56,162 nucleotides of DNA, taken from the NCBI GenBank assembly GCA_039936115.1, contig JBDTIZ010000066.1, forward strand, positions 1 through 56,162, read 5' to 3'. A program made the translations under genes and the position numbers. Positions 13,145 through 56,162 of this stretch are shown here, one piece after another. The notes beneath the pieces were generated by a model that saw only the letters and a list, made by a program, of their open reading frames with translations, had not been told where the DNA came from and searched no databases. Positions within the stretch are counted from its first letter, which is position 1, and each line of letters opens with the position of its first letter. This stretch comes from Gammaproteobacteria bacterium (GTDB lineage: Bacteria; Pseudomonadota; Gammaproteobacteria; DSM-16500).

Positions 13145-13148
13145 TAAC

Positions 13149-34794: not shown

Positions 34795-34799
34795 TCAGC

Positions 34800-37205: not shown

Positions 37206-37900
37206 ATAAAAAACATTGGCTCATATTTCTAATTTGTATCAATACACTCTGCAATAAATGCTATGCAGATGCTATCTACTCAATTTTAAATTCAACCCGT
37301 CATTTAGAAGCCATTTCCATGGCAATTAACAATGACCAATCGGGCATTTTAAGAAGCCAGCTCGATATTGAAGGCTTAATGAAACAGGTAAGTAATCACA
37401 TGGCAGGAAATTCCGGATGGGGTACTTACCAGTTTCACGATTATCAATCATACGGGGCAGGTGCACATACCTGGGGCGATGTGCAAAGAATGGTAAAAAA
37501 TGGTGGCGGCGGAAGTCAGTTAGGTCAGGCAATAAATGCAATATCAAACCAGTTTCCTTCAAATAATGCGCTATTCAATAAAGGTATTACTGATCCGAGA
37601 ACTCAAACCTACTACAGCTTGCAATCACAAACAATTTTAGCAGCGCGTGCAGCGAGCCAGGTTGACTATGACAAAGTACAAGATCAAATCGGTTATCAAC
37701 AAATGTTGCAGCAGCAAATCGAGAAAACAAAGGATTTAAAAGCAGCTGTCGATCTTAATAATCGGATTCAAGTTGAAGCTAATTTAATAAGTTTGGAGGT
37801 ACTTAGGCAATCTGCAATTGCAAATCAGCAAAGAGCAGTCACTGAACAAGCGGGTATGAACAACGCGTTATTAAACGCTAAATTTTTAACAAAAAGGTAG
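37202..37900 (+). CDS. virB5: T4SS minor pilin/adhesin-like VirB5 family
   Basis: 232 aa, signal peptide (..CNKCYA/DA), helical and Gln-rich. It lies between virB4 and virB6, with an ATGA overlap. Confidence 0.65.
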   Translation: MNKKHWLIFLICINTLCNKCYADAIYSILNSTRHLEAISMAINNDQSGILRSQLDIEGLMKQVSNHMAGNSGWGTYQFHDYQSYGAGAHTWGDVQRMVKNGGGGSQLGQAINAISNQFPSNNALFNKGITDPRTQTYYSLQSQTILAARAASQVDYDKVQDQIGYQQMLQQQIEKTKDLKAAVDLNNRIQVEANLISLEVLRQSAIANQQRAVTEQAGMNNALLNAKFLTKR

Positions 37901-37907
37901 GGCAAAT

Positions 37908-38039
37908 ATGAAAATAAAATTATTTATTATGGCAGTCATTATAAGTGTGATGACGGGTTGTGCAAGTCAGGGAATGAAATCTCCTTGCAATGAACATGCT
38001 AACTTTTGCGGCAATAAAACTAAAATCAATTTGTGGTAA
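37908..38039 (+). CDS. virB7: small lipoprotein, VirB7-like (not in the supplied ORF track)
   Basis: Manual translation gives MKIKLFIMAVIISVMTGCASQGMKSPCNEHANFCGNKTKINLW (43 aa). It has a lipobox VMTG/C and fills the 147-bp gap between virB5 and virB6. Confidence 0.6.
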   Translation: MKIKLFIMAVIISVMTGCASQGMKSPCNEHANFCGNKTKINLW

Positions 38040-38047
38040 TAAAATAA

Positions 38048-39037
38048 ATGATAACAGCACAATCTTTTTTTACAGATACGCTAAATACAGTAGATGCAGT
38101 CATTGGAAATTTTGTCAAGACTGCATATACCAATTTTCTAGAGACCAATTCTGGTGTTATCACATTATTATTTACACTTTATATTATATTTTTAGGATAC
38201 CGTTTTCTTAACCATGATGAAAAAGTGAGTCTGAGTTATCTGACACGCCACCTAATAGTCATGCTTTGTGTCTACAGTATGCTTATGAGCTGGCATTTAT
38301 ATAATCTATTTGTTTATAACATCTTTACGAATGAGCCAAATAATATTTCACAAATATTAGTAAACTCGGCGAAAAACATGCATTCGGGCGAAACAATCGC
38401 CACTGCTTTAGATGAAATATACAAATCAGTTATAAATGCCACTATAGGCTTTTTTGGGCAAGTCAGTTTTAGTGCATCGGGAATAGCGTTTCTTTTCTAT
38501 GGAGTATTAGTTTTTTTCATTGGATCACTTCTGTGTGTGTTTGCATTGCTTCTTTTCATCTATGCAAAAATGATGATGGCAGTATCACTTGCATTAGGCC
38601 CCATGTTTATTTCATTTATTTTGTGGGAACCCACTAAAGGAATGTTTAATGCGTGGCTGAATAAATTAATAACCATAGCTTTAATACCTGTGATTACCTC
38701 AGCAATTTTAGTACTCATGTTGTCCGTTATTAATGTCACTCTTCCGAGCATCAATCAGTCAACTCAAACCATGCAGTTTTATGGCATCGTGCCATTTCTG
38801 GCGCTTACTGTAACAACGACATTAATACTTTCACAGGTGTTTCGTATAGCTAGTGCATTAGGTGGGGGGATAACACTGACCAGCTTATCTAAGGGAGGGG
38901 AGATTATTAAAGAATCTTTAGATAAAGCAGGCGTTGTATCGGCGACCCGCGCTGCATCGAATTGGGTCATGAAACAAGTCACAAGTTCTAAAAAAAATAA
39001 ATACAGGGGAGGCAAGAAGTGGCTACGAAAATATTAA
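38048..39037 (+). CDS. virB6: T4SS inner-membrane protein VirB6/TrbL family
   Basis: 329 aa, polytopic with at least 5 TM helices, and a basic C-terminal tail. The position in the operon is conserved. Confidence 0.8.
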   Translation: MITAQSFFTDTLNTVDAVIGNFVKTAYTNFLETNSGVITLLFTLYIIFLGYRFLNHDEKVSLSYLTRHLIVMLCVYSMLMSWHLYNLFVYNIFTNEPNNISQILVNSAKNMHSGETIATALDEIYKSVINATIGFFGQVSFSASGIAFLFYGVLVFFIGSLLCVFALLLFIYAKMMMAVSLALGPMFISFILWEPTKGMFNAWLNKLITIALIPVITSAILVLMLSVINVTLPSINQSTQTMQFYGIVPFLALTVTTTLILSQVFRIASALGGGITLTSLSKGGEIIKESLDKAGVVSATRAASNWVMKQVTSSKKNKYRGGKKWLRKY

Positions 39038-39720
39038 AGAATTCCTTTGTTGAAAAGGATTTCTATCAATCAAGTTCTGACTGGATATATAGCATGTATC
39101 AAAGCCAGACCGTCTGGTTAATGCGATCACTTGTTGCCTCATTGTTTTTGTTGATTCTACTTGGGTTGTCACTAACAGCAAATATATGTTTACTCCCATT
39201 AAAAGAAAAGGTTCCCTATCTTTATGCTTTTGATCATGCGACAGGTGAAGTTACTAAAATTGGTGTACTTGATAAAACTAATGTGTCATCAAATTGGGAA
39301 GTAGCGCGATATTTTCTGATTCATTATGTTATCAATTATGAAGGCTATAATGCCGATAATATTGATTATCCTTATCAAATGGTTTGGGCGCAATCAAGCG
39401 ACGAAGTGAGAAAGCAATTTGATAATCAAGTGAATAGCACTAATGTAAATTCGCCTTACAAAATATACGGCAAAGATAAATTTGTTACAGCCAAGGTTAT
39501 TTCAGTTAATCGATTAAATGAAAATACTGTGGACATAAAATTTGAAAAGAAGCTACATGATCGTACATCCAATGTGGATCAAATCACTTATAAGGAAGCA
39601 ATTGTTAAATGGGATTTTTCAAATGCGGAATTAACGCAAAAAATGTTAGATCGAGATCCGCTTGGATTCAAGGTCACATATTACCAAGTTAGTCAGGTCA
39701 CTTTAGATAATAATTTATAG
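39019..39720 (+). CDS. virB8: T4SS protein VirB8
   Basis: 233 aa. It is bitopic, with a single TM (LVASLFLLILLGLSL) followed by an NTF2-like periplasmic domain (ARYFLIHYVINYEGY...). The start is GTG after GGGAGG. Confidence 0.8.
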   Translation: MATKILKNSFVEKDFYQSSSDWIYSMYQSQTVWLMRSLVASLFLLILLGLSLTANICLLPLKEKVPYLYAFDHATGEVTKIGVLDKTNVSSNWEVARYFLIHYVINYEGYNADNIDYPYQMVWAQSSDEVRKQFDNQVNSTNVNSPYKIYGKDKFVTAKVISVNRLNENTVDIKFEKKLHDRTSNVDQITYKEAIVKWDFSNAELTQKMLDRDPLGFKVTYYQVSQVTLDNNL

Positions 39721-39729
39721 GAAAAAAGA

Positions 39730-40461
39730 ATGAACAAATTAATGTTATTCACATGTGTATGTTGTCTCACCGTAGGTTCCAATCTTTCGTATGCAGAAAG
39801 TGTTCCGAGAGGAATTGCAACAGATAATCGGGTTAAAGTTGTTATGTATGATCCTAATAATGTCGTGCTACTTAAAGAAAGATATGGGTATCAAACACAA
39901 ATTGCATTTTCTGCTAATGAAACCGTTCAAAGCGTCTCAGTCGGCGATAGCCTCGCATGGCAAGTTGTACCTATAAATAATAATTTATTTATCAAGCCTG
40001 TTGCTCTATCCAAAACTAATATGACAGTTTTGACTAATATGAATAGCTATAATTTCCAGTTGGATTCCTCTGATTCTACGTCTAAGTTGACTTATAAATT
40101 ACAGTTTACCTATCCAGAAGTAGGTTATGACCAATCAGGTAAGTCTGATGCGGTTGATACTTTTAATCCTGAAAAATTTAACTGGAAATATAGTTTTACA
40201 GGCGACAGGTCTTTAGCGCCGATTGAAGCATTTGATAATAACCAATTTACTTACTTTAAATTTAAGTCTGACGGAATGAGTCATTTGCCAGCAGTTTTTG
40301 TAGTCGATAAAGATCGAAAAGAAACTTTGGTGAATTATCACATGCAAGGCGGTTACATGGTGATTAATTCTATCGCAAAACAGTTCACATTACGCGATGG
40401 GTCATCTGTCACAAGTATTTATAACGATTATGCAATTGGTGATTGGAAAAAATTATCTTGA
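39730..40461 (+). CDS. virB9: T4SS outer-membrane core protein VirB9/CagX family
   Basis: Signal peptide. VVMYDPNNVVLLKERYGYQTQIAF...VGDSLAWQV...NNLFIKP is the typical VirB9 N-domain pattern. Confidence 0.85.
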   Translation: MNKLMLFTCVCCLTVGSNLSYAESVPRGIATDNRVKVVMYDPNNVVLLKERYGYQTQIAFSANETVQSVSVGDSLAWQVVPINNNLFIKPVALSKTNMTVLTNMNSYNFQLDSSDSTSKLTYKLQFTYPEVGYDQSGKSDAVDTFNPEKFNWKYSFTGDRSLAPIEAFDNNQFTYFKFKSDGMSHLPAVFVVDKDRKETLVNYHMQGGYMVINSIAKQFTLRDGSSVTSIYNDYAIGDWKKLS

Positions 40462-40471
40462 GGTAAATACC

Positions 40472-41569
40472 ATGAAATTATCTAACAAAACTAAAAATAG
40501 CACATTAGAAAGTGGACTGCCTGAAGTGGCGCAGAAATATCGTAATAAAAAGCCAATAGTATTAGTTATATTTGGCATTATATTAATTGTATTTTTATTT
40601 GTGCATTTTCATACAAAATCAGGTGCAAAAGTTACTGCTCCAGTAGAAGAAACATATACACCACAAAACCAGGTAAGCGGTGAAGTTAACAAAATTGAGG
40701 TGCCTGTAACTGCTGGCTCTGTTAGTGAGCCGAAGCTGGATAGTCAAATAACAAGTGAGGCGGTGGAGGAACATAAGCTATACATTCAGGAAAAAGAAAA
40801 GGAATTACAACAACGGCTTTCTGCACCATTAATGCTTGTAGCAAGTAATTCAGGTAGTAAGCCAGTTGAAGCATCGTCGAACACGAGTAGTCAATCACAA
40901 GATCCTAATACTCAATTTATGAATCAAGTTTCAATGCAAGACGCTGAAACCATCAATGCGACATCAATAGGTTCATTAAGTTCAGTGATTGCTGAAGGAA
41001 GTCTAATTCATGCAATTCTAGAACCCGCCACTGATTCAGATCTGCCTGGATATTTGAGAGCCATTGTGAGTGAGCCTTGTTATTCGGAAGATGGAAGCCA
41101 AATTTTAGTGCCGGTTGGAAGTCGATTAATAGGTCAATACAAAAGTGGAATGACAATGGGTCAATCGAGAATTTTCATTGTATGGACACGGCTGCTAACT
41201 CCAGCGGGAATTTCAATCAATCTCGGATCGCCTGGTGTTGATAGCTTAGGCGTTGCAGGAATGGGTGCAGATGAAATCAACAGACATTTCTGGGCGCGAT
41301 TTGGCACGGCTTCTTTACTTTCTATTATGGGTGTTGGTGCTGCAAATTCCGGTGTGTCAGGTGATGATCAGGCGAACTCAGCTTCTGCTTATCGGGCAGC
41401 CATTGCAAATAGCTTTTCTCAGTCGGCAGCGCAAAGTTTGCAACAAGAAAGCATGATTCCGCCTACGCTCAAGACTTATCAAGGGAAGCCAATTATGGTT
41501 TTTGTTGCGCATGATTTGAGTTTTCAAAACGTAATCAAACAAGGCATCTCAAAGATCAAAGTATTTTAG
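40472..41569 (+). CDS. virB10: T4SS core protein VirB10/TrbI family
   Basis: N-terminal TM, a Pro/Ser/Gln-rich linker and a C-terminal TrbI domain (GSLIHAILEPATDSDLPGYLRAIV...GQSRIFIVWTRLLTPAGISI). I chose ATG 40472 (MKLSNK), after the virB9 stop, over the track start at 40397. Confidence 0.85.
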   Translation: MKLSNKTKNSTLESGLPEVAQKYRNKKPIVLVIFGIILIVFLFVHFHTKSGAKVTAPVEETYTPQNQVSGEVNKIEVPVTAGSVSEPKLDSQITSEAVEEHKLYIQEKEKELQQRLSAPLMLVASNSGSKPVEASSNTSSQSQDPNTQFMNQVSMQDAETINATSIGSLSSVIAEGSLIHAILEPATDSDLPGYLRAIVSEPCYSEDGSQILVPVGSRLIGQYKSGMTMGQSRIFIVWTRLLTPAGISINLGSPGVDSLGVAGMGADEINRHFWARFGTASLLSIMGVGAANSGVSGDDQANSASAYRAAIANSFSQSAAQSLQQESMIPPTLKTYQGKPIMVFVAHDLSFQNVIKQGISKIKVF

Positions 41570-41580
41570 AGAAGTAAAAT

Positions 41581-42558
41581 ATGTCAATAAAAGCGCTAGA
41601 GCGGCATTTGATACCATTATTACCATTTTTAAAATCTGATAATGTGACTGAAATTTGCATTAATCGGAGTAAAGAAATATATGTCGAAAAAAAGGGAAAA
41701 TTTACCAGTTATAAGATTGAAGAGTTAGAAATTGGATTTTTAGAATCATTTGCTGCTTTAGTTGCTGAATTTAACAATAAAGACTTTCCTTCGCCGCTAC
41801 TTTCGGGCGCATTGCCAACGGGAGAAAGAATTCAATTTGTCATGAGTCCAGCCTGTGATAGTGACAAATTGATTTGCTCTATTCGAAGGCATCAAATGCG
41901 AAATATGACATTAAATGATTACGATGAGAGGGGTGTTTTTAATGAAATAGTCTCCAATGATACGTCATCTACGACAATGATTGATGATGAACTAAAACGA
42001 CTTTACCAGGAAAAAAATGTTTTAAGTTTTTTGAAGCTAGCCATTCAGAGCAAAAAAAATATTCTAATTAGCGGCGGAACTGGTACAGGTAAAACTACTT
42101 TTTTGAATGCATGCTTGAAATGGATGCCACCGCACGAGAGATTGATTACTGTGGAGGACACGCGTGAAGTTGTTGTTACTCAGGCGAATGCTGCGCATTT
42201 ACTTTTTAATGAAGAAGACGAACGTATTAGTGCGTTGAAAATCTTTAAAGCCTGTTTGCGATTGCGTCCTGATAGAATTTTTCTTTCTGAGTTGAGAGGT
42301 TCAGAAGTATGGCCTTATTTGCGTGCTGCAAACAGCGGACATCCAGGCAGTATAAGCACGGTACATGCGGACACACCAAGGGGTGCATTTACGCAACTTG
42401 TTTTTATGATGCAGCAAGCTGGATCAACATCAACTGACTTAAGAATTTTAGATTATGTTAAATCGATTATTAATGTGGTGATACAGCTAAAGCGTTGTTC
42501 CAGACCAGATCGGTTCATGTATGTTTCGGATATCTATTTCGATGGAATTCATACTTAA
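41581..42558 (+). CDS. virB11: T4SS ATPase VirB11
   Basis: Walker A ISGGTGTGKTT, ITVEDTRE, SELRG and the His box GHPGSISTVHA. Confidence 0.9.
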   Translation: MSIKALERHLIPLLPFLKSDNVTEICINRSKEIYVEKKGKFTSYKIEELEIGFLESFAALVAEFNNKDFPSPLLSGALPTGERIQFVMSPACDSDKLICSIRRHQMRNMTLNDYDERGVFNEIVSNDTSSTTMIDDELKRLYQEKNVLSFLKLAIQSKKNILISGGTGTGKTTFLNACLKWMPPHERLITVEDTREVVVTQANAAHLLFNEEDERISALKIFKACLRLRPDRIFLSELRGSEVWPYLRAANSGHPGSISTVHADTPRGAFTQLVFMMQQAGSTSTDLRILDYVKSIINVVIQLKRCSRPDRFMYVSDIYFDGIHT

Positions 42559-42574
42559 AACTAAAAGAGGTAAA

Positions 42575-42919
42575 ATGAAGTCACTAAATCAAATTCAGTT
42601 AATTGGACATGTCGGGAATGATCCTGAGTTTAAGGAAAGTAACGGGACTGTTTTTTCAAAATTCAGGCTTGCGACAGATGAAGGGTGGACAGACAAAAAG
42701 ACAAATGAAAAGCATGAGAATACTGAATGGCATAGGATTGTGTGCTTCAGCGGGTTAGGAGAAGTCGTTAAAAATTACGTTAAGAAAGGCGCAAGAATTT
42801 ATATCTCAGGCAAGCTAACGACTTCTATTTGGAAAGATAAAAATAATGAGACTCGGCATACCACTGAAATTATTGCTGACAATATTATTATGTTAGACGG
42901 TAAGAAAAGTACGGAATAA
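42575..42919 (+). CDS. ssb: single-stranded DNA-binding protein (short, element-encoded)
   Basis: LNQIQLIGHVGNDPEF...TEWHRIVCFSGLGEVVKNYVKKGARIYISGKL is the OB-fold SSB pattern. The start is at MKSLNQ, after AAGAGG. Confidence 0.85.
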   Translation: MKSLNQIQLIGHVGNDPEFKESNGTVFSKFRLATDEGWTDKKTNEKHENTEWHRIVCFSGLGEVVKNYVKKGARIYISGKLTTSIWKDKNNETRHTTEIIADNIIMLDGKKSTE

Positions 42920-42936
42920 AAGAGAGTTAAGACTTA

Positions 42937-43116
42937 CCTGTATTCTGGCCTGTATTCTCGGAGTATACAGGCCAGTGTCAGAGGCGACTCTTTGTAAGCC
43001 ATATGGTTGTTGGGTTTATCGAGAAATTATCTCAACCCACTGGTTCCTGACCACCCACTTACATCGTCCCGATGAGAGTAATTGGGTGGTCAGGAACCAG
43101 TGGGTTGAGATAATTA
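42937..43116. repeat. candidate oriT region: tandem CCTGTATTCT repeats, a 13-bp-arm hairpin and a perfect 33-bp inverted repeat
   Basis: CCTGTATTCT occurs at 42937-42946 and 42949-42958. The hairpin GGCCTGTATTCTC-G-GAGTATACAGGCC lies at 42947-42973. AATTATCTCAACCCACTGGTTCCTGACCACCCA (43025-43057) is the exact reverse complement of 43084-43116. Confidence 0.45.
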
Positions 43117-43124
43117 TTTTTATA

Positions 43125-43748
43125 ATGAAGATGAGAATGAAGATAACAGATAGAGATATAGAAGTGATGAGATTTATTAATGAGTTTGGGTATTGTGGGA
43201 TGCCGGAGATTCAGAAGAGGTTTGGTATTGGAAAAGTGTCAGGTTATAGATTGCTGAGGCGATTGGTTAAAGAAGGATATATGTGTCATAGGCGATTATT
43301 TTTTTCAGGGCATGGAGTTTATTATTTGAGTGCAAGAGGTGCTAAGTGGACGGATTTACCGGCGATTAGTCATATTTCATTTGATTATTATGAACATCAA
43401 ATGTCGTTGATTCATGTCTATATTCGTTTGCGGCAACTTAATCCTAATGCTACTTGGATGAGCGAGCGGCGTTTGAAGCATGAGAAATTTTATGATGGTG
43501 TTGGGAAGCTTGGTCATGTGTCGGATGGTATTTTGATATTGCCGGATGAGAAACAAATTGCCATAGAGGTTGAGCTTAGCTTGAAAGGCAAAACTAGAAT
43601 TGAGCGGATTTTTAAACAGTATAGTACGCAATTTTCTATTAAAGAGGTTTGGTATTACTGTCCGGAGAATATGGTGAAATCATTAAGCTTGTTGGCGCAG
43701 CGAATGCCATTTATTAAAATTCATAATATAGCGGATTTTTTAGCATGA
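43125..43748 (+). CDS. replication-relaxation family-like winged-helix protein (possible relaxosome component)
   Basis: ITDRDIEVMRFINEFGYCGMPEIQKRFGIGKVSGYRLLRRLVKEGYM is a wHTH motif. The rest resembles Replic_Relax proteins, from memory. I moved the start to ATG 43125 because the track ORF's first 50 codons run through the 33-bp inverted repeat. Confidence 0.5.
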   Translation: MKMRMKITDRDIEVMRFINEFGYCGMPEIQKRFGIGKVSGYRLLRRLVKEGYMCHRRLFFSGHGVYYLSARGAKWTDLPAISHISFDYYEHQMSLIHVYIRLRQLNPNATWMSERRLKHEKFYDGVGKLGHVSDGILILPDEKQIAIEVELSLKGKTRIERIFKQYSTQFSIKEVWYYCPENMVKSLSLLAQRMPFIKIHNIADFLA

Positions 43749-45445
43749 ATGACGATGTGATTGGAAACTATATTAATAGTCATCCTAAGCAGTCTTTGCA
43801 AATACTAGTGATTGGTTTAATGGGTGCCTGGCAGAGTATTGCAGCTATTTTAGGGATTTTTTTGTATGTGATATTTAGACAATTATTTCAATTGCAGTGG
43901 TGGATTACATTATTTGTTGGAGTTGTGGTGGCTTTTGCAGCAATTCTTTTGCAGGAGAGTAGTTTTTTAAAGTTTATTCATGATGGCTTGATTTTAAATA
44001 TAGGGTTTTGGAAACGATTTTTTACGAATGATGTGTTGGGCGCTATGTTGTTTGTTTATCATGATGCATTTAGTTACGTGATAGGTTTTCCCATTTTTGT
44101 GGCGGGGATTTTGGATGCGTTAAATCTTATTTCAGAAAATCCTCATCAAGCGGTAATGCAGAATTTACAGCGGGGGATTAATTCTGACAAATTGTTAGAA
44201 ATTAGTGATAAAGCTGTTGAGCAGGCTTTATTAAAATTACGTGATGAAAATTATGATGGTACGGTTTTGGGTGTATCAAAATATACGGGAGAATATTCGG
44301 TAATTCCTGATCGAGTCATTAATCAAGTGTTACTTGTTTTAGGCACAACCGGTAGTGGAAAAACTATTACGTTAAGACGATTTTATAAGCGTGCAATTAC
44401 TAAAGGGTATCCGCTTATTATTGTTGATGGTAAACCAGATGAAGCTAATATTTGCTGGCTGATGAAGTTAGCCGAGCAAAATGGGCGTCGGTTTATAGGA
44501 TTTAACTGCGGTAATTATTTGCCTTATGATCCCTTGGCTAATGGTGGTTACACAGAATTAAAAGACAAAATTATTAGTTTAAAAGATGAATGGTCTAGTG
44601 ATTATTACCGTTCTATTGCAGAAGATTATCTACAGACAACTTTTGAAGTATTGATTAAATCAAAAAAACCTTTTGATTTGAGGATGGTGGTAGATTATTT
44701 AAATTATGACGAGCTAACATTATTGATGCGGGAGATTGAAGATGAAAGTCTAATAAAAAGAGCGAGCAGTCTTGCGCATTATGATCGTAAAGATATAACC
44801 GGATTGCAAGCTCATCTCAATATTTTGATACATTCAGAACTAGGCCAGTATTTTGAGAAAAATGAAACTACATTTTCTCTACCCGATGCAGTCAATCAAA
44901 ATGCGGTTGTTTATTTTGCTTTACCCGCTTTGCGCTTTCCTAGTTTTTCTAAAGTGTTAGGTAAGCTTGTGATTAATGATTTGAAGGCCGTCATTGATCG
45001 TGATGTATGCGTTAATAAACGATTGTTTGCAGTATTTGATGAATTCTCAGTGTTTGCTGGCGAACAAGTTTTAAATCTGGTTAATATGGGAAGAGGAAAG
45101 GGCGTACATGCAATTTTTGGTACACAAGGATTGGCTGATTTGGATAAAGTTGATGTGACATTCAAGAATCAGATATTAAATTGTGCTAATACGCTGATTT
45201 GTCATCGTTTGAATGATCAAGAGAGTGCGGAAAATATTTCAAGTTGGGTAGGGACTCGCGACGTTTTTACTGTGACTGCACAACTTAATGCTAAAAAATC
45301 AGATTCAGGAATGGGTTCAGTGAGACTTAAAAAAGAGTTTATTATACACCCTGATACCATTAAGCAAGGATTACGGACAGGTGAGGCTTTTTATGTAACT
45401 AAGGTTGGAAATTTCAAACAGGATAAAATTATAGTGAGATTTTAA
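43745..45445 (+). CDS. virD4: type IV coupling protein (VirD4/TraD-TraG family)
   Basis: Two N-terminal TM helices, Walker A LGTTGSGKT and Walker B-like RLFAVFDEFSVFAG. It has an ATGA overlap with the upstream gene. Confidence 0.8.
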   Translation: MNDDVIGNYINSHPKQSLQILVIGLMGAWQSIAAILGIFLYVIFRQLFQLQWWITLFVGVVVAFAAILLQESSFLKFIHDGLILNIGFWKRFFTNDVLGAMLFVYHDAFSYVIGFPIFVAGILDALNLISENPHQAVMQNLQRGINSDKLLEISDKAVEQALLKLRDENYDGTVLGVSKYTGEYSVIPDRVINQVLLVLGTTGSGKTITLRRFYKRAITKGYPLIIVDGKPDEANICWLMKLAEQNGRRFIGFNCGNYLPYDPLANGGYTELKDKIISLKDEWSSDYYRSIAEDYLQTTFEVLIKSKKPFDLRMVVDYLNYDELTLLMREIEDESLIKRASSLAHYDRKDITGLQAHLNILIHSELGQYFEKNETTFSLPDAVNQNAVVYFALPALRFPSFSKVLGKLVINDLKAVIDRDVCVNKRLFAVFDEFSVFAGEQVLNLVNMGRGKGVHAIFGTQGLADLDKVDVTFKNQILNCANTLICHRLNDQESAENISSWVGTRDVFTVTAQLNAKKSDSGMGSVRLKKEFIIHPDTIKQGLRTGEAFYVTKVGNFKQDKIIVRF

Positions 45446-47905: not shown

Positions 47906-49993
47906 TTAGCTTAAACTACCCGCATGTAAAAAAGTCTCAATATGAATTCTCTCTTGAGTTATGCCTTGCGATTTCAGCAGAGTCTCAATTGCCATCTGAT
48001 ATCGTTTGTGACCACAAACATAGAATTTTGCTCCAGGAAATTCAGCTAGTATTTTAGCTACTTTATCTTCAGTTAAAATACCATCTTCATCCGTTTTTCT
48101 AAAATGAACACTAAAATTAGGATGTGATTTCTCTATAGTTAAAAATTCATCTGAAAAAATTAATTCTTTTTCAGTATCCGCTGAATAATCAATATGAAAT
48201 TTTCCCTGATAATTTTTGACATCTAATGAACGCGCGAATGCGACTGCAGGAGCAACTCCTATACCGCCTGCAAAAAACACGATGGGAGAATTCGACCTTA
48301 CATCAATCGTAAAATTTCCTTGTGGTTTGGATACACGTATCAATGGTTCTTCCGCCTCATTCAGAAAGAGCCAGTGAGAAAAATATCCATGCGGCTCTTC
48401 TTTAACTACAATTTCGTAGTATTCATCATGATCTGGAACGGATATTAAAGAATAATATCTCTCTACCCAATGATCTTCTATCAAAGCCTGAATAATGACT
48501 ATTTGGCCAGGTTGGTAAGATAATATTTTATTTTGATGCGGTTTAAGGCGATACAAGTGAATTGATGGTGTTAAAGGAATGACTTTGTCTATATAAACCA
48601 GTGTCCACTCCGCTTTACCTAAAAATTCGTTTATTTTATATCGGCAAGCACCACAGACAGTTCCAGCACCGGTAACCTTAGATACCTCTTCAAGCTCTTT
48701 TAGACCAGTACGTATCACGTTTTTTATCGTACCTACTTTAATTCTCATGCAATAACAAAATATTTCATCGTCATTGAAATTATTAACAGCTTTTTCATGA
48801 ACGAAGTTGCCTGTTTTTTGGAATAATTTAATTTCCAAGGGTTTTATTGCTTTATTATCTAATAGTAAACTACACGCATGACTTAACTGCTCCCATATTC
48901 CAATGCTTGTGATGCCAATCAGTTTATCATCAGCAAGAATTATTTCACGTGTAATCCCTGATGGTTCTTCATATCGTAATACTTGTGGTAGCTTTATCTC
49001 TTTCACTTCCATCATCGTAAAAATGTTTTTTCCTAAAGCCTGCAGTGCGATTATTTGTCGATTATCAAAATCATAAGTGGTTTTTATTGCATCCAAATCC
49101 AGAAATTTACTTTTCGCAGCCGAAGACACAATACCACGACGAGGAATTGCATACATGCGTTGCATAGCTTCTACCCATGTTTGCAAACGTGGATTTGCCC
49201 AATATACATCATAGAAAATTTTACCCTCGACAACTAAAAGCTCAGTTTCGCCACATGTAATAGCAGTGCCTTCTCTCGTTATTCCTTTTAGAACACCTAA
49301 CTCACCGAATAGTTGTTCTTGTCCTATCTTAACAACAACATCAGCGGTTTCTTTCTCATATTTCAGGTAAATTTTTACTTCACCAGACATGATAAAATAC
49401 ACATGGTGTGCCTCGTCACCTTGAGAAAAAATAACGTGCTTATCTGGATATTGATAGACACGACCCGTCAGTTGGTTAAATAAATTTTCAGGAATCGATT
49501 GAAAAAGTGGTGATTTAGTCAGTATCTTTTTGATTAACTGTTCATGACCGATAGTTTTAAGGATTTTTTTCAACTGTTGATTTTCATATAATGAAGGGTG
49601 CACATCAGAATAGAAAATTTTTAAAAGTTCTACATCACTTAATGCCTTGATGCTTGCATTACGTCGGCCCAAGCTTTCATCCACCAATGCTTGCTCGCCA
49701 AAAAAACTGCCTTCTTTCAAACAAGACAATGGAATTTCTTCACCTTCAGCATTAATACTGAAAACACAAACCTCGCCTTTTTCTAGCAGAAAAAAAGAAT
49801 CGCCTATTTCGCCTTCTTTTAAAATTAATTCGCCTGATGAAAAACTTACTTTTTTAGCAGCTTGATACAATTTCTTAAATTCTTTTCTGTTTAAATGCTC
49901 AAATAAGCCGGTTTTTTTTAAAACTTTTTTTACTTTATTTCCCAATACAAATTTTCGAAATTTTTCTTTAATTATTTTTTGTATTGAGCTCAT
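47906..49993 (-). CDS. multidomain reductase: 2x cyclic-nucleotide-binding, linker, BFD-like [2Fe-2S], and FNR-type FAD/NAD(P)H oxidoreductase domains
   Basis: The cNMP-binding beta-barrel motifs are GEIGDSFFLLEKGEV...FFGEQAL and GDEAHHVYFIMSGEV...LFGELGVL. The BFD-type cluster is CYC...GAGTVCGAC. The FNR motifs are RYYSL, FFAGGIGVAPAVAF and YVCGHKRY. Confidence 0.8.
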   Translation of the reverse strand: MSSIQKIIKEKFRKFVLGNKVKKVLKKTGLFEHLNRKEFKKLYQAAKKVSFSSGELILKEGEIGDSFFLLEKGEVCVFSINAEGEEIPLSCLKEGSFFGEQALVDESLGRRNASIKALSDVELLKIFYSDVHPSLYENQQLKKILKTIGHEQLIKKILTKSPLFQSIPENLFNQLTGRVYQYPDKHVIFSQGDEAHHVYFIMSGEVKIYLKYEKETADVVVKIGQEQLFGELGVLKGITREGTAITCGETELLVVEGKIFYDVYWANPRLQTWVEAMQRMYAIPRRGIVSSAAKSKFLDLDAIKTTYDFDNRQIIALQALGKNIFTMMEVKEIKLPQVLRYEEPSGITREIILADDKLIGITSIGIWEQLSHACSLLLDNKAIKPLEIKLFQKTGNFVHEKAVNNFNDDEIFCYCMRIKVGTIKNVIRTGLKELEEVSKVTGAGTVCGACRYKINEFLGKAEWTLVYIDKVIPLTPSIHLYRLKPHQNKILSYQPGQIVIIQALIEDHWVERYYSLISVPDHDEYYEIVVKEEPHGYFSHWLFLNEAEEPLIRVSKPQGNFTIDVRSNSPIVFFAGGIGVAPAVAFARSLDVKNYQGKFHIDYSADTEKELIFSDEFLTIEKSHPNFSVHFRKTDEDGILTEDKVAKILAEFPGAKFYVCGHKRYQMAIETLLKSQGITQERIHIETFLHAGSLS

Positions 49994-50001
49994 AGTTAAA
50001 T

Positions 50002-51621
50002 TTATCTCGGCAGAAAAAATGAGACATAGGTTTCATTTGCGACATGTCGATAAAACAAGGATTGAATTGAAGTTTCATCTAATCGTTTCGAACCAAAAGG
50101 CATTAACATCTCATCTCGCCGCTTCCAGACACTAGGTGCAAGCCATGGTTGTAATAAAATTATTTTGAATGCAACACATGATAACATTCTTTGTAATAAC
50201 ATAGGAAAAAGCCTATCTTTCTGAACTTTTTCTGCGATTAAACCAACATAAAATTCTACATCATCGACAGATTTATAATGCTTATGCAGTGCTTCAACCA
50301 CCGATGGATCTGGGTTGATCTCTTCAAAACTTAATGCCCTAAGCAAACCCATTCTTTCTCGATAATCATTATAAGTCGCTAAATTAGCTTGACGCCCTGC
50401 TTCAATTGTATTTTTTTCTGCAGGCAGCAAGAAAAATGGCGTATTTTGTGGTCCAAAAGGACAAATGGGATATCTTGATAACTGATCAACTACGGCATCC
50501 AATCCATGTTGTACGACGAAATCAGGTCGATATAACACGGATGCAATTGGCATTTCCTTGCTATTAAATTTCATCGTGTCTGGTACGAATGAATGGAAGC
50601 GATACAGATGATTCCATTCGATTGGAACACGTGTCACACTGCCAAAAGACCACTGTGGACCTGTTAATACTTCAGGCGAAAATGGAATATCCATTGCTAA
50701 ATGATGTCCATTGTGTCGTCCGATGTAGTCTACCACAACAATTTTATTTAATATCAGCGTGCAAATATTTCGTGCGGTTTGATACAAGCGCTCATCATCC
50801 CAATCGGGATATATTTTTTGTAACTCATCACAAATTTGATTATGTTCTCGCAAAAAAACGATTCCCCAAACCATTGCACCAGGCGTTGAATTAATTTGAA
50901 TTTGGCCAAATGCAAATAATGTCTCAGAATCAATAACGCCTCTATCAGTATTATTTATAGCTGCATGTGTTGCCGTTCTTTGCAAAAAAGCACTCATTAA
51001 AGGAGATTCTTTGATTTCAGGTAAATCTTTTATATACATAGGATATTCTTGGCCATTGATTTTTTGACTTTTAAGTTTTCCTCCAGACATGGATCGCAGA
51101 ACACGGCGGGTTTTTTCATCATTACCATACACTGTATTTACATTTGCTGTACTTGTTGGATAGAGCCCAGAACGCCCATGATGAGTAGGATCTGTTAATA
51201 GAAATCCTGCGGCAAACCATTGCGCAAAACCCCCAAATAATAAACTGCTGTTTCGATCCGTATGCTGTGATGAATCAGACTTATGTCTTCTTAAAAAAAT
51301 ATCTTTGACTAACTCATCAACGGGGGGATATTTATAATCGGCGGCGCGGGGTTTTTCAGGCAACATACGTGCGTAATAACTATAATCTTCGATGCCATCT
51401 ACCGTCACGTAAGGATGTTTGGTGGTGTAAGGAAAAGGATAAACAGCGCCACTTCCAACTAGATTATATAAAAAGCGCCGTGAATATTTTTTTAAACCCG
51501 GCGTATTTAAGAAGATATACCACAAGACTTTGAAATGGGTTAATAAGTATTGAAAAAATGCAATTCGCATTTGGAGAAGTTTTCTCTTTAAAATAGAAAC
51601 CTTTTTTTGGGAGGGGTCCAT
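50002..51621 (-). CDS. cyclooxygenase / alpha-dioxygenase / linoleate-diol-synthase-like haem protein (animal haem peroxidase superfamily)
   Basis: LLFGGFAQWFAAGFLLT aligns to COX FAFFAQHFTHQFFKT. VYGNDEKTRRVLRSMSGGKLKSQKINGQEYP aligns to COX IYG(D/E)xLxRQxxLRLFKDGK(L/M)KYQxxxGExYP. EWNHLYRFHSFVPD aligns to COX EFNxLYHWHPLxPD and the alpha-DOX YRMHSLLPD, which carry the catalytic Tyr and the proximal His. The stop lies 8 nt before the reductase gene start. Confidence 0.7.
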   Translation of the reverse strand: MDPSQKKVSILKRKLLQMRIAFFQYLLTHFKVLWYIFLNTPGLKKYSRRFLYNLVGSGAVYPFPYTTKHPYVTVDGIEDYSYYARMLPEKPRAADYKYPPVDELVKDIFLRRHKSDSSQHTDRNSSLLFGGFAQWFAAGFLLTDPTHHGRSGLYPTSTANVNTVYGNDEKTRRVLRSMSGGKLKSQKINGQEYPMYIKDLPEIKESPLMSAFLQRTATHAAINNTDRGVIDSETLFAFGQIQINSTPGAMVWGIVFLREHNQICDELQKIYPDWDDERLYQTARNICTLILNKIVVVDYIGRHNGHHLAMDIPFSPEVLTGPQWSFGSVTRVPIEWNHLYRFHSFVPDTMKFNSKEMPIASVLYRPDFVVQHGLDAVVDQLSRYPICPFGPQNTPFFLLPAEKNTIEAGRQANLATYNDYRERMGLLRALSFEEINPDPSVVEALHKHYKSVDDVEFYVGLIAEKVQKDRLFPMLLQRMLSCVAFKIILLQPWLAPSVWKRRDEMLMPFGSKRLDETSIQSLFYRHVANETYVSFFLPR

Positions 51622-51769
51622 GGCTACATCCTTTAGACTTTCTTAAATAGCTTAGCGCATTTTAGATGTATTGTGTTATTTAATTATAAGACAGTCTTTT
51701 CAGATTCGCTATTATCATTTGCATATGAAATAATAACTTAAGTTATTACGCCTATTTACAATCAATGTT

Positions 51770-52795
51770 ATGATTATTTATAGAATGGAGTATGGTCCCA
51801 TGAATAAGCTTCTAAAGTTTTTACCACGAATTATTCCTGGCTTTCCTATCATCCTGAACACCCAAACTGAGATTTTTAAAGCAGAAGAATCGGGTGATTT
51901 GTCTTTTGGTATGATTGATACACCCAATCACCCTCAACTGCCCTCAAGAATTCGTTATATTGTTTCGTTGCTGTACGAGCATCCAGATGGCAATGATCAA
52001 AATCTATTTATCCATCTTAAAGATCATGATACTTATCCTCCTTCTGAGGAAAGGAAGGCTGCAAGACAAGAAACCTGGGAAAAGCTAAACGCTGTTCTCC
52101 AACAATTGAAATCTATGGATGATCAATCATCGGCATTATTACGCTATATTAGCTCAGCTAAAAACAAGGAGCTGTATACTCCCGATCTTGAAGCACAAGC
52201 AAGAATCGAATTGATTACGATGGTTCTACATCAATGGAATGACAAAATTACCATTGATTTAAAGTTTCTTGAATGTCAGGACGTATTTGTGACTGCCAAA
52301 GCTCATATACTGAAGTCTGTACTTTTTCCTGATCGTGATGCATTTGAAAAGGCGAAAAAATATATGGCAACAAAGGTGGGAAATAATCCTACTCTCTATC
52401 ATCATTCTTGGGGTATTGGCATAACATTATGGGGCGGGATTAAAAAACTTTATGAAGAAATTGAAAAACCTGCATTTAAATCAATGCTACAAAAAGGTGA
52501 ATGGTCCCCTGCTGGATTTTTGGCGCAATTTAATGTGCCGCCTAAATCAGAATTTCGTGTTGCCTCTCGCAAAACGAACTTAGGTGGCGTTCTTCCTTAT
52601 CAAATTAATCGTGGTAAATTTGTAATTCTGGCAAGCAGTAGTGCTGCCGAAAACGTGGAAGGACTCTTCTTAAATTCTTGTAGCGCTGCTAATTTTATTT
52701 TAGATCTTATTACATTTCTTGTTTTACGTAATAATACAGCTGACTCAGAAAAAATTTGTCCCTATAAAAACACTATTACAAGACCTCTTTACTAA
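51770..52795 (+). CDS. hypothetical protein (start uncertain: 51770, 51785 or 51800)
   Basis: Long ORF of ~330-341 aa with no recognisable motif. It is divergent from the COX-like operon. Confidence 0.55.
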   Translation: MIIYRMEYGPMNKLLKFLPRIIPGFPIILNTQTEIFKAEESGDLSFGMIDTPNHPQLPSRIRYIVSLLYEHPDGNDQNLFIHLKDHDTYPPSEERKAARQETWEKLNAVLQQLKSMDDQSSALLRYISSAKNKELYTPDLEAQARIELITMVLHQWNDKITIDLKFLECQDVFVTAKAHILKSVLFPDRDAFEKAKKYMATKVGNNPTLYHHSWGIGITLWGGIKKLYEEIEKPAFKSMLQKGEWSPAGFLAQFNVPPKSEFRVASRKTNLGGVLPYQINRGKFVILASSSAAENVEGLFLNSCSAANFILDLITFLVLRNNTADSEKICPYKNTITRPLY

Positions 52796-52821: not shown

Positions 52822-53943
52822 ATGACAATATCAAATCGATATAGTTTATTTTGGTTATTAACATTACTCCTCTTATTTTGCAGCACAATAAATTTAGCTT
52901 GGGGATGTACTGGCATTCAGATTAAAGCCAAAGATGGATCTATTGTAAATGGTCGCACTATTGAGTTTGGATTAAATCTAGAGCTAGGTGGAGTTATTGT
53001 TCCAAGAAATTATCAATTTAAAGGTACGTTACCTGATGGAACTGCGGGTCTTGTCTATACGTCCAAATATGGTGCGGTTGGCGGTGGAATGTTTGGCGAA
53101 GCAGCAATCGCAGATGGCATTAATGAGAAAGGCTTGGCGATAGGAGATTTTTATTTTCCGGGTTATGCAAGCTATGCGAAGATTACGCCAGATAACAAAA
53201 AGAAAGCGTTATCGCCTACAGAATTTTCAAACTGGATTTTGACGCAATTTGCGACGGTTGATGAAGTAAAGCAAGGACTACAATCCGTTGTTATCGCACC
53301 AACAACTCCAAAAGGTTGGCCTGTTTTACCGCCGTTTCATTATATTGTTTACGATAAAACGGGTAAAAGTATTGTGATTGAACCGATCAATGGGCAATTA
53401 AAAGTTTATGATAACCCATTGGGTGTTTTTACTAATTCTCCTACATTTGATTGGCATATGACAAATTTAGCTAATTATGTCAATCTTTCGACAGTCAATG
53501 TCGCGCCGATTAATTTTAATGGTGTTGAGTTACAACAGTTCGGTTCGGGTTCCGGACTACACGGATTGCCAGGGGATTTTACCCCGCCTTCACGTTTTGT
53601 GCGCGCCGCTGTTTTTTCAAGCGCTGTTATTCCCGCGGATAATGCAGAACTCTCTGTATTTCGAGTATTTCATTTATTGAATCAGTTTGATATTCCGATT
53701 GGAGCGGTACGTCAAGATCAAGGTACAACCATGATTCCGGAATATACATTAGCCACGGTAGTGAGAGATCCGCAAAATTTGAAATTTTACTTCAGATCTT
53801 TTGACGATCAAACGATTAAAATGGTGAATTTAAACTCGTTTGATTTGAATGCGAAAGATATTAAAACATTTACTATGAATGGTGCTCAGCAAGTGATGGA
53901 TATTTCTAAGTCTGTAGTTACGTATTCTGGTAATAAAAATTAA
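52822..53943 (+). CDS. secreted Ntn-hydrolase of the choloylglycine hydrolase / linear amide C-N hydrolase family (PVA/BSH/NAAA-acid ceramidase relatives)
   Basis: The signal peptide ends LAWG/CTGIQIKAKDGSIVNGRTIEF, so the nucleophile Cys would become residue 1 after cleavage. NSPTFDWH and GLPGDFTPPSRF motifs are typical of the CBAH family. Confidence 0.8.
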   Translation: MTISNRYSLFWLLTLLLLFCSTINLAWGCTGIQIKAKDGSIVNGRTIEFGLNLELGGVIVPRNYQFKGTLPDGTAGLVYTSKYGAVGGGMFGEAAIADGINEKGLAIGDFYFPGYASYAKITPDNKKKALSPTEFSNWILTQFATVDEVKQGLQSVVIAPTTPKGWPVLPPFHYIVYDKTGKSIVIEPINGQLKVYDNPLGVFTNSPTFDWHMTNLANYVNLSTVNVAPINFNGVELQQFGSGSGLHGLPGDFTPPSRFVRAAVFSSAVIPADNAELSVFRVFHLLNQFDIPIGAVRQDQGTTMIPEYTLATVVRDPQNLKFYFRSFDDQTIKMVNLNSFDLNAKDIKTFTMNGAQQVMDISKSVVTYSGNKN

Positions 53944-54123: not shown

Positions 54124-56162
54124 ATGAATATATGGATAGTTATGCCTAATGCATTGAATGACATTATTACCTCAGCGATTAAACAATGCGGTGTATTTAG
54201 CACACTGCCTGAATCCAAAATTATTGAATTACTTCCAGACCTAAAAAAAATTAAACTCGAAAAAGGCCAAATCCTATTTAACCAGGGCGACGACTCTAAT
54301 CTTGTTTATGTCGTTATCAGCGGTAAATTATCTGCCTTCTTCGTATCTTCAACTGGCACGTTTAAAACAATTGGAATTATTGAACCGCCTGAACCCATTG
54401 GTGAGTTTGGTGCATTATCTGGCGAGTCGCGCAGTTTGACTATTCGAGCGGATATTGATACTGAATTAGTTGCAATGTCTTCTGAGCACTTCAAAAAGCT
54501 TTGTCAGGAATACCCTACTATCTTGCTTGATACTGTTAAACCCATTATTACTCGTTCGTTAAAGACGATACGATTATTTGAAGAACCTGTACTGGACACT
54601 GAAGCTGAAACCTTAGCTCAAGTAAATAAATTATCCGATGCAGATCGCAACCTTTTAGAAGCCATCAAGCGAGCTAAAGTATTCATCAGCGTAGAAGCAA
54701 CTCGCATTATTCAACTGCTTCCACACTTTAAACAAGTGAAACTAAGCGCAGGTAAAATACTTTTTCGTCAAGGCGAAGATTCTGACTACATTTACATTGT
54801 CGTCAAAGGTAAATTATCCGCCGTTTTAACAACAGCCCGAGGCGAATATAGAACACTTGGAGTAATTGGGCCGGGTGAAACAGTTGGAGAACTTGGTGTG
54901 TTATCGGGCTTCGCTCGCAGCTTAACGATTGGCGTATTAGAAGAAGCAGAATTAGTTGGATTACCAAGTCCTATCTTTAGACAATTATGCCAAAAGTATA
55001 CTTCGGTTTTATTAACAACTGTAGATCCTATTATTAATCGTGCATTACAGACAATTAAACTGCTGCAAGGTGAAAAATTAATTGAAAATTCAGTTTTATT
55101 TCCTGCCACCCAGAATTTTGATTTTACATCTTTCAGACAACAAATTGAAGAACATGTGTCACAGCTTAAACCCATGAAACTCATTTCAAAAAATCCCACC
55201 GATCCACATGAATATTTAAAATTAGAACGCATTTCAGAAAAAGATGGCACAAAAACACATGTTTTTTTCCTCGAGACAATTGAGAAAATTGCATTACAAT
55301 ATCTCACAGAAAAAGTTAGCAAATTTTACTTAGTTGCCGATGGCACTAAAGAAGTTCACATCGACGAATTTGCTACTCAAGTCTTAAAAATTATTTCCAG
55401 CTTTCCTCATGTCAAATTATTTTTGGTGTTAGTCTATCCCGATGGCACGAAAACACCTAAACGTACAAATGCTTGGTTAAGTCAAAAATTAGATTTTCAT
55501 TTGCATCATCATGTACGTAAAAATCGACATGAAGATTTTCAACGTTTATGCCGATTTATGAATGGTTCTGCGGTGGGTGTCGTATTTGGTGGTGGTGGCG
55601 CAAAAGGTCTTGCGCACATTGGTGTGATAAAAGCATTAATGGCAAAAAATATTGATATTGATGCGGTGGGTGGCACCAGTATTGGTGCACTTGCAGCTGC
55701 GAGCTTTATATTGAATACACGATTTGACAAAATTGATAAAAATTTCAGATGGATGTTAGAAAAGTGTTATGACGTTCTTTCGTATCGCCATTTAGTTTGG
55801 CCGATTGTTTCTTTACTAAGTTCAAATCCTATTACTGAATCGGCTATAAACTTTTTTAATGATACAAGAATTGAAAATATGTGGCTTCCTTTCTTTTGTA
55901 TTTCCGCTAATTTAGCTGAAAACCGAGAAGAGGTGCATAGAACGGGTTTACTCTGGCAAGCTTTAAGAGCCAGTGCATCAACGCCAGGTGTTGTTCCACC
56001 CGTCGTCATCAATGGTCAACTTCATCTTGACGGCGGTTTGTTGAATAATCTACCCGTCGATGTGATGAGAAATTTGTTAGGCCCTGGCTGCAAAATAATT
56101 GCGTCAAAACTGTCTAGCAGTGAACATGATTTATCACAATATGATTTTCCACCTACCTTGAC
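54124..56162 (+). CDS. cyclic-nucleotide-binding (x2) patatin-like phospholipase (NTE/RssA-like), 3'-partial and running off the window
   Basis: Manual frame read from ATG 54124 (alternative 54142). The cNMP motifs are GDDSNLVYVVISGKL...IGEFGALSG and GEDSDYIYIVVKGKL...VGELGVLSG. The patatin motifs are VVFGGGGAKGLAHIG (oxyanion), GTSIGAL (GxSxG) and HLDGGL (catalytic Asp). It is absent from the ORF track because no stop is reached. Confidence 0.85.
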   Translation, partial: MNIWIVMPNALNDIITSAIKQCGVFSTLPESKIIELLPDLKKIKLEKGQILFNQGDDSNLVYVVISGKLSAFFVSSTGTFKTIGIIEPPEPIGEFGALSGESRSLTIRADIDTELVAMSSEHFKKLCQEYPTILLDTVKPIITRSLKTIRLFEEPVLDTEAETLAQVNKLSDADRNLLEAIKRAKVFISVEATRIIQLLPHFKQVKLSAGKILFRQGEDSDYIYIVVKGKLSAVLTTARGEYRTLGVIGPGETVGELGVLSGFARSLTIGVLEEAELVGLPSPIFRQLCQKYTSVLLTTVDPIINRALQTIKLLQGEKLIENSVLFPATQNFDFTSFRQQIEEHVSQLKPMKLISKNPTDPHEYLKLERISEKDGTKTHVFFLETIEKIALQYLTEKVSKFYLVADGTKEVHIDEFATQVLKIISSFPHVKLFLVLVYPDGTKTPKRTNAWLSQKLDFHLHHHVRKNRHEDFQRLCRFMNGSAVGVVFGGGGAKGLAHIGVIKALMAKNIDIDAVGGTSIGALAAASFILNTRFDKIDKNFRWMLEKCYDVLSYRHLVWPIVSLLSSNPITESAINFFNDTRIENMWLPFFCISANLAENREEVHRTGLLWQALRASASTPGVVPPVVINGQLHLDGGLLNNLPVDVMRNLLGPGCKIIASKLSSSEHDLSQYDFPPTL

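Follow-up and report, generated by a model that had tools for sequence, protein, structure and literature searches.

The 56,162-nt contig JBDTIZ010000066.1 of a gammaproteobacterium (GenBank assembly GCA_039936115.1; this whole stretch is referred to as the window) carries two adjoining genes, one coding for a haem protein similar to cyclooxygenase (COX) and the other for a reductase with two domains for binding of cyclic nucleoside monophosphates (cNMP). According to our best reading, the haem protein would be a divergent bacterial COX-like fatty-acid dioxygenase and the reductase its dedicated electron donor. We give an even chance to the more specific proposal that both proteins form a direct redox couple, in which the haem is activated by reduction and not by peroxide. 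We infer such a couple because the haem protein kept the radical machinery and lost the residues predicted to cleave peroxides, because its [2Fe-2S] partner is clade-specific and tightly coupled, and because the family of this partner appears to be built to reduce O2-activating haems.

To our knowledge, every characterised dioxygenase of the cyclooxygenase family is self-sufficient: a hydroperoxide oxidises the haem, which gives rise to a tyrosyl radical, and peroxide availability, the 'peroxide tone', is the physiological control. Literature searches revealed no COX-like enzyme described together with a reductase partner, in agreement with an initial annotation of the window, made from the sequence alone, whose author knew of no described pairing with a cNMP-gated reductase. 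Reports of COX-like proteins in Legionellales were not found in the literature either.

The COX-like haem protein and the adjoining reductase gene

Both open reading frames (ORFs) and the 8-nt spacing between them are located where the initial annotation had placed them. The strand, which had not been stated, is minus.

50002..51621, minus strand: COX-like haem protein, 539 aa (ORF and PF03098 match)
49994..50001, minus strand: 8-nt spacer between the stop codon of the COX-like gene and the ATG of the reductase gene
47906..49993, minus strand: cNMP/BFD/FNR electron-transfer protein, 695 aa (ORF and domain matches)

A terminator-like site was not found on the minus strand between the two ORFs, which makes co-transcription or translational coupling of both genes likely. 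Their organization in one operon is the best explanation of this arrangement.

Comparison of the haem protein with PF03098 (An_peroxidase) resulted in a score of 146 bits at a cut-off of 25 (E 1.6e-42), which assigns it to the peroxidase-cyclooxygenase superfamily. In a PDB search, residues 15-538 were aligned with residues 81-583 of ovine COX-1 in one full-length match (E 2e-58). Weaker matches were obtained with alpha-dioxygenases (alpha-DOX; E 1e-9 to 1e-12) and with myeloperoxidase (MPO) and lactoperoxidase (LPO; E ~1e-7). The initial annotation had described three blocks of similarity to COX. The block comprising the radical tyrosine and the proximal histidine was confirmed, and the similarity is not limited to such blocks but extends over the full length of the protein. 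An AlphaFold2 (AF2) model calculated with 120 homologues (pLDDT 92.5, pTM 0.93) was compared to known structures using Foldseek. COX-1 and COX-2 were the top structural matches with a TM score of 0.83 at 27-28% identity, followed by alpha-DOX (TM 0.64) and the peroxidases MPO, LPO and DdPoxA (TM 0.62-0.64), pointing to a COX-type fold and not to the fold of alpha-DOX or of secreted peroxidases. Sequence and model together place the protein in the COX branch of the superfamily and argue against an ordinary secreted peroxidase, an outcome that had been named beforehand as an objection to the annotation.

The alignment to COX-1 begins at residue 81, within the membrane-binding domain, and the EGF domain is absent. 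The N terminus displays amphipathic helices at residues 3-55 and is devoid of a signal peptide. Because neither an EGF domain nor a signal peptide is present, the protein looks like a cytoplasmic, membrane-seated protein. In terms of sequence, its nearest relatives are the bacterial 10S-DOX group, that is proteins of the linoleate 10S-dioxygenase type.

Distal haem pocket and pairing in a bacterial clade

Catalytic residues were mapped by a MAFFT alignment of 120 bacterial homologues and ovine COX-1, and a HMMER alignment agreed with the assignments. Residues of COX-1 are given first.

Gln203: Gln134, codon 51220-51222, minus strand
His207 (distal): Ala138, codon 51208-51210, minus strand
Position 291 (distal Arg site): Gln242, codon 50896-50898, minus strand
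Tyr348: Tyr299
Tyr385 (radical): Tyr340, codon 50602-50604, minus strand
Trp387: Phe342
His388 (proximal): His343, codon 50593-50595, minus strand
Arg120, Ser530 and Gly526/Gly533: Val, Ala and Leu/Ile, respectively

The Y-x-x-H motif of the window protein (Tyr340-Arg-Phe-His343) and Tyr299 correspond to those of the COX branch, and an equivalent of Tyr504 is present as well. Tyr385 and His388 are invariant in 120/120 homologues and Tyr348 is conserved in 119/120, so that the radical tyrosine and the proximal histidine recognised in the initial annotation stand on a broad alignment. The distal histidine is missing, as had been noticed before, and the choice between Ala and Gly at this position can be settled as Ala138. 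Among the 120 bacterial homologues, position 207 is occupied by Asp (110), Ala (7) or Glu (3) and in no case by His. Judged by this alignment, absence of the distal histidine is the norm of the bacterial family and not a peculiarity of a clade within it. It had been offered as a possible reason for the redox partner, an explanation that fails on its own since none of the 120 homologues possesses the histidine and since the Nostoc linoleate 10S-dioxygenase (UniProt B2J5P4) is active with an Asp instead of the distal His and without a reductase (Brash et al. 2014, summarised in PMC13049297).

The window protein belongs to a clade of seven sequences. Database searches retrieved six close relatives with 60-69% identity, whereas the next homologues shared at most 37%. 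All seven sequences were monophyletic on a long stem in 20/20 bootstrap neighbour-joining trees, with a small Asp-type group as sister, and the relatives include the metagenome-assembled genome (MAG) of an "uncultured Coxiellaceae bacterium" (L003/L004). Outside the clade, the distal pocket consists of Gln203, Asp207 (110/113) and Arg291 (101/113); within the clade, Gln is combined with Ala207 (7/7) and Gln291 (7/7). Further clade-specific substitutions are Trp387Phe and Leu352His (each 7/7) and Thr206Ala and Gln383His (each 6/7). Residues 238-300 of the window protein align with residues 123-185 of the MPO heavy chain at equal length, and Gln242 is found opposite chain residue 127, which we take to be the distal Arg239 in MPO numbering. 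Due to this correspondence, position 291 of COX-1 appears to be the site at which the superfamily ancestrally had its catalytic distal Arg. The clade has accordingly lost two polar residues with an expected role, in its relatives, in the heterolytic cleavage of hydroperoxides and the formation of the ferryl/tyrosyl-radical state.

Two groups of characterised enzymes are suited for comparison. P0072 from Nostoc punctiforme, which is 33% identical to the window protein, carries FTDSF at position 143 and Tyr342. As both fit the published numbering of the Nostoc linoleate 10S-dioxygenase, with its FTDSF motif at 143 and Tyr342 (PMC13049297), P0072 is probably the orthologue of this enzyme. The Nostoc enzyme and the window protein have in common the COX fold with membrane-binding helices B-D, the equivalents of Tyr385, His388 and Tyr348, the absence of the distal His and of the EGF domain, and an Ala at the position of Ser530. 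They differ in the distal pocket, where Nostoc 10S-DOX has an Asp (F-T-D-S-F) and an Arg at the Val291 position and the window protein has Ala138 and Gln242. They also differ in their partners: the Nostoc enzyme cooperates with the product of a separate gene, a catalase-related hydroperoxide lyase (PMC13049297), whereas the window protein is accompanied by the cNMP/[2Fe-2S]/FNR reductase. Neither the distal Asp/Arg pair nor the adjacent lyase that characterise the 10S-DOX type are found in the window, and catalase homologues are absent from the other clade loci as well. Animal COX-1 and COX-2, the best match in structure and in PDB sequence, share the equivalents of Gln203, Tyr348, Tyr385, His388 and Tyr504. 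The window protein lacks several hallmarks of animal PGHS, namely His207, Arg120, Ser530, Gly526/Gly533 and the EGF domain. Moreover, animal COX is activated by peroxide and self-sufficient without a reductase partner, whereas the window protein is paired with one.

A gene coding for cNMP-binding and [2Fe-2S] domains is present at 6/6 clade loci with downstream flank and is the next gene in 5/6. The pairs are arranged as follows (CNB, cNMP-binding domain).

Window: 8-nt gap
L001/L002 (P0002): 4-nt overlap
L003/L004 (Coxiellaceae MAG): 11-nt gap, partner without CNB-A
L016: 1-nt overlap, partner consisting only of CNB-B, linker and BFD; preceded by an FMO-like gene
P0004 and P0123: apparently on one 4.8-kb contig, taken as the fifth directly adjoining case
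L001, second paralogue P0006: reductase copy ~1.5 kb away on the other strand, behind a MonCI-like gene

A reductase homologue was not detected in seven Asp-type loci with flanks of 5-10 kb, even at E<0.01. From these comparisons, the feature tracking the reductase is the joint loss of the distal Asp and of the ancestral distal Arg, and the constant element beside the COX-like gene of the clade is a CNB domain together with a [2Fe-2S] domain. The concern of the initial annotation that the two genes might not co-occur elsewhere is removed by these six loci. Its description of the reductase as a dedicated partner agrees with the recurrent pairing but cannot be extended to the reductase family, which is not exclusive to COX-like enzymes. 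A metagenome scan for further clade loci recovered only the already known locus, and a DNA search of a plasmid collection with the cassette gave no match.

The reductase family and the proposed activation of the haem

The architecture assigned to the reductase at the outset, two cNMP-binding domains followed by a BFD-type 2Fe-2S motif and an FNR module, was reproduced by domain matches with intact motifs. All parts are encoded on the minus strand.

CNB-A (cNMP_binding): residues 49-131, nt 49601-49849, minus strand
CNB-B (cNMP_binding): residues ~167-255, nt ~49229-49495, minus strand
Linker: residues ~256-412, minus strand
BFD-type [2Fe-2S] domain (Fer2_BFD, PF04324): residues 413-458, nt 48620-48757, minus strand
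FAD_binding_6: residues 473-562, nt 48308-48577, minus strand
NAD_binding_1: residues 574-665, nt 47999-48274, minus strand

The two cNMP_binding stretches were detected at E 9e-37, and the top PDB matches of the N-terminal half were PKG and PKA regulatory subunits. For the FNR half, the greatest similarity was to flavohaemoprotein, MmoC and BenC-type reductases. The linker (residues 256-415) had no Pfam match even at E 10, and a weak NirB-like NCBIfam similarity spans residues 318-459. All cofactor motifs are intact in the window protein and conserved over 17 homologues with single exceptions. The FNR motifs RYYS (RxY[ST]), GGIGVAP (GxGxxP) and VCG (CG) are kept in 16-17 homologues and the four cluster cysteines (C-Y-C ... 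C-G-A-C; CxC ... CxxC) in 16/17, the third Cys being replaced by Arg in P0130. The phosphate-binding cassettes FGEQAL...RRNAS in CNB-A and FGELGVL...REGTA in CNB-B contain the Gly-Glu and Arg residues expected for PF00027. As far as these motifs indicate, the FNR/[2Fe-2S] chain of the protein is standard, and it is the sensory N terminus that is unusual.

Among 1.84 billion representative proteins scanned with HMMER (E<=1e-30), 355 clusters matched the reductase, and most of the best 150 did so over nearly the full length. No description of a cNMP2-BFD-FNR reductase family was found in the literature. Full-length homologues of the module with 30-34% identity carry a C-terminal oxygenase domain, which is either that of NO synthase (NOS; P0173, P0189 and P0223) or a cytochrome P450 (P0187, P0216, P0258 and P0280). 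In P0124 (L012 8001-11447), the N terminus of the module is fused to a flavin epoxidase related to MonCI/Lsd18. Unfused members adjoin genes for MonCI-like (L015) and amine-oxidase-like proteins (L013), an FA_hydroxylase (L018) and a multihaem cytochrome (L017). The epoxidases preceding the reductase in related loci (L001 4472-9783 and L015 10-12642) are homologues of MonCI/Lsd18 (PDB E 4e-42). In L015, the MonCI-like and reductase genes reside inside a polyketide synthase/acyltransferase/ACPS/patatin cluster, with a patatin gene behind a reductase homologue.

From the diversity of these partners, the module donates electrons to O2-dependent enzymes in general, probably under cNMP regulation. 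Judged from the fused sequences, it is in several cases demonstrably part of a haem oxygenase, these homologues of the window reductase being covalently linked to an O2-activating haem domain. Since the fusion partners are NOS and P450 haem domains, electron delivery from the reductase to its haem partner in the window is credible. The NOS fusions have the same inverted order of reductase and oxygenase as the self-sufficient NOS of Sorangium cellulosum (scNOS), in which an N-terminal 2Fe2S-FAD-NAD reductase precedes a C-terminal oxygenase domain (PMC3701330). In scNOS and in reductase-fused P450s, however, the haem domain is fused and thiolate-ligated, whereas the haem enzyme of the window is a separate, His-ligated polypeptide of the COX family. 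DUOX is an example of a domain of the peroxidase-cyclooxygenase superfamily paired with an FNR-type NAD(P)H/FAD module, in this case under Ca2+ control. Unlike the two polypeptides of the window, DUOX is a single membrane protein. Its H2O2-producing reductase comes from another family (ferric reductase/NOX), and its peroxidase domain does not act as a fatty-acid dioxygenase.

The following mechanism would account for the pairing. Electrons would be transferred from NAD(P)H via FAD and the [2Fe-2S] cluster to the ferric COX-like haem. The ferrous haem would bind and activate O2 in a P450- or NOS-like manner, and the resulting oxidant would create the Tyr340 radical or possibly oxygenate the substrate directly. 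The Tyr340 radical would abstract a hydrogen from the fatty acid, and O2 would be inserted. The CNB domains would put electron delivery, and hence initiation, under the control of cAMP or cGMP, a dependence that would replace the 'peroxide tone' controlling animal COX. The neighbouring lipase with cNMP-binding and patatin domains may release the fatty-acid substrate on the same signal. In COX-type chemistry the radical is regenerated in each turnover, so that electrons would be needed mainly for initiation, and control by the CNB domains would naturally act at this step. Homology, residue states, the clade-specific synteny and the haem-domain fusions of the reductase family are observed, whereas the transfer of electrons to the COX-like haem, its chemistry, the substrate and the gating by cNMP are inferred.

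Several points weigh against this mechanism. We know of no protein partner that reduces a His-ligated haem of the peroxidase-cyclooxygenase superfamily. Part of the oxygenase activity survives in distal-His mutants of COX, albeit with a lag, and loss of the distal residues does not necessarily demand a reductase for this reason. As the reductase family is promiscuous and its members also adjoin or are fused to MonCI-like flavin epoxidases, an amine-oxidase-like flavoprotein, an FA_hydroxylase and a multihaem cytochrome, adjacency alone does not fix the electron acceptor. The partner itself is variable, lacking CNB-A in L003 and the FNR module in L016, and adjacency of COX-like and patatin genes was seen in this window only. 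Moreover, the clade is sampled by seven members from a few metagenomes, and the whole finding is computational.

A direct redox couple has to be weighed against other functions of the reductase. Less probable is a role after oxygenation. The dioxygenase would activate itself and the reductase would reduce the fatty-acid hydroperoxide, or ferryl/compound II at the haem, to yield hydroxy fatty acids, thereby filling the role of the COX-peroxidase cosubstrate, of the cyanobacterial catalase-related lyase or of the fungal fused P450. In fact, every characterised relative passes its hydroperoxide to a second activity, such as the Nostoc catalase-related lyase or the fungal P450 (PMC13049297). A catalase-type partner in the Asp-type locus L009 even occupies the gene position held by the reductase in the window. 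The intact electron-transfer motifs of the reductase would suit peroxide reduction as well. However, the lost Asp/Arg pair would promote exactly this kind of reaction, the reduction of peroxide at the haem, and the fused NOS and P450 homologues use the module for reductive activation of O2 and not for reduction of peroxides.

Slightly lower still is the probability that the reductase serves another oxygenase of a lipid pathway, for example a flavin epoxidase, desaturase, hydroxylase or FMO, and is only co-regulated with the dioxygenase. Such a function would be compatible with the range of fused and adjoining partners described above, with the second reductase copy of L001 behind a MonCI-like gene and with the FMO and FA_desaturase genes next to the pair in L016. 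On the other hand, the COX-like gene and its partner overlap or are closely spaced in four independent loci, no other oxygenase was recovered nearby in the window when tblastn was run with FMO, desaturase, hydroxylase and MonCI-like queries, and the change in the distal pocket is clade-specific and correlates with the partner.

It is improbable that the COX-like protein is a haem sensor, a pseudo-enzyme or a recently acquired eukaryote-like effector sent into a host cell: the loss of distal catalytic residues, relatives from Coxiellaceae-type bacteria, ankyrin-repeat genes nearby and the position of the cassette next to a type IV secretion system (T4SS) and an insertion sequence (IS) element would fit, but the equivalents of Tyr385, Tyr348 and His388 are retained in every clade member, a clade identity of 60-69% indicates constraint, the protein nests in bacterial homologues (33-37% identity) and not in animal COX (28%), the T4SS is a VirB-type conjugative set and not Dot/Icm, and proteins with haem, Fe-S and FAD cofactors would be unlikely secretion substrates.

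Genomic context and implications

The COX-like operon and its surroundings, in a window with a GC content of ~35% throughout, comprise the following features.

51622..51769: divergent, AT-rich promoter (intergenic) region, separating the COX-like operon from the gene for a 341-aa protein
51770..52795, plus strand: 341-aa conserved protein
52822..53943, plus strand: exported Ntn-hydrolase of the choloylglycine hydrolase/penicillin V acylase family (linear amide C-N hydrolase)
54124..56162, plus strand, running off the window end: neuropathy-target-esterase-like (NTE-like) protein
47452-47778, minus strand: open frame resembling the C-terminus of TauD/TfdA-type dioxygenases, without start codon (by eye)
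46046-47251, minus strand: Mutator/IS256-type transposase
34755..45445, plus strand: complete VirB-type conjugative T4SS (VirB4, B5-like, B6, B8, B9, B10, B11, SSB and coupling protein)
9311-9383: tRNA gene (Rfam)

The NTE-like ORF, 2.5 kb from the COX-like operon, combines two cNMP-binding domains with an NTE P-loop-like domain and a patatin phospholipase domain, and its product may be a candidate for a cNMP-controlled supplier of free fatty acid. Its proximity to the COX-like system suggests a cascade in which a phospholipase would act ahead of the dioxygenase. The CNB pairs of the reductase and of the patatin protein share 21% identity, which rules out recent paralogues. A gene for rRNA or another RNA at the window end was likewise ruled out, as this region is the cNMP-patatin ORF and Rfam revealed only one tRNA.

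The divergent promoter region contains a perfect 18-bp palindrome, TAATAACTTAAGTTATTA, at 51731-51748. No second copy is present in the window, and the regions upstream of the orthologues in L001 and L003 do not share it. The 341-aa protein on the other side of this region belongs to a family with 9 members among 5.8 billion proteins. The motifs YHH and WSPA are invariant and a C-terminal CPY is found in most members. Searches of Pfam, NCBIfam and PDB sequences gave no match, an AF2 model based on the 9 sequences was of poor quality, with a pLDDT of 61, and its Foldseek search had no hit below E 1. A member of the family is found with the COX-like gene at all related loci with enough flank, namely the window, L001, L003 and L016. 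Its members were located as follows.

L001: 3089-4111, 15132-16145 and 20919-end
L003: 8752-9759
L016: 4304-5308
L019: 1606-3700

In L019, the family is present as a tandem pair together with alpha/beta-hydrolases, and the COX-like gene is absent. The Ntn-hydrolase, whose nucleophile Cys29 directly follows the signal peptide, may be part of the COX-like module. Related loci harbor further lipid genes, namely those for fatty-acid desaturase, FMO, CMAS and patatin. The FMO and FA_desaturase genes of L016 lie beside the COX-like/reductase pair, and DUF5692 genes adjoin the pair in L001 and L003. Genes for DUF5692, MonCI-like protein, FMO, FA desaturase, FA hydroxylase and CMAS are absent from the window.

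The TauD-like frame with the sequence …GDLIFINNEKLLHGRT…, which separates the reductase gene from the IS element, is probably a gene remnant. Since the cassette adjoins the IS transposase and the T4SS, it resembles cargo carried at the border of a mobile element, which would be integrative or plasmid-borne conjugative. A protein search with VirB4 gave matches of at most 38% identity. The tRNA at 9311-9383 could mark the boundary of an island. Apart from this, the plus strand at 22740-31775 encodes split PEP-utilising/PPDK-like proteins, an MFS transporter, an AfsA-like (A-factor/butyrolactone) hotdog protein, an Old-Yellow-Enzyme flavoprotein, two SDRs, a flavodoxin-like reductase and DUF2867, a possible cluster for small-molecule biosynthesis. 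Two neighbouring genes at 11678-14333 on the plus strand code for radical-SAM proteins, of which the first has a SPASM domain; they may form a peptide-modification pair.

The evidence defines a sizeable family, comprising at least 150 representative clusters, of cNMP-sensing reductase modules that serve NOS, P450, flavin epoxidases and other oxygenases, and the fusions imply that cyclic-nucleotide-regulated self-sufficient NOS and P450 enzymes exist in bacteria. If the proposed redox couple is true, a second messenger would be able to switch the COX scaffold and reduction would be able to drive it, which would amount to another activation logic within a very well-studied enzyme family, and the clade would be a natural experiment on the contribution of the distal residues. 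The hosts are likely Coxiellaceae-like intracellular bacteria. A tentative and rather doubtful extension is that the window encodes the first reductase-dependent member of the superfamily, switched by cAMP or cGMP, which together with the patatin protein would constitute a second-messenger oxylipin cascade in these bacteria. The type of host and the adjacent cNMP-patatin lipase raise the idea of a regulated bacterial oxylipin production at the host interface.

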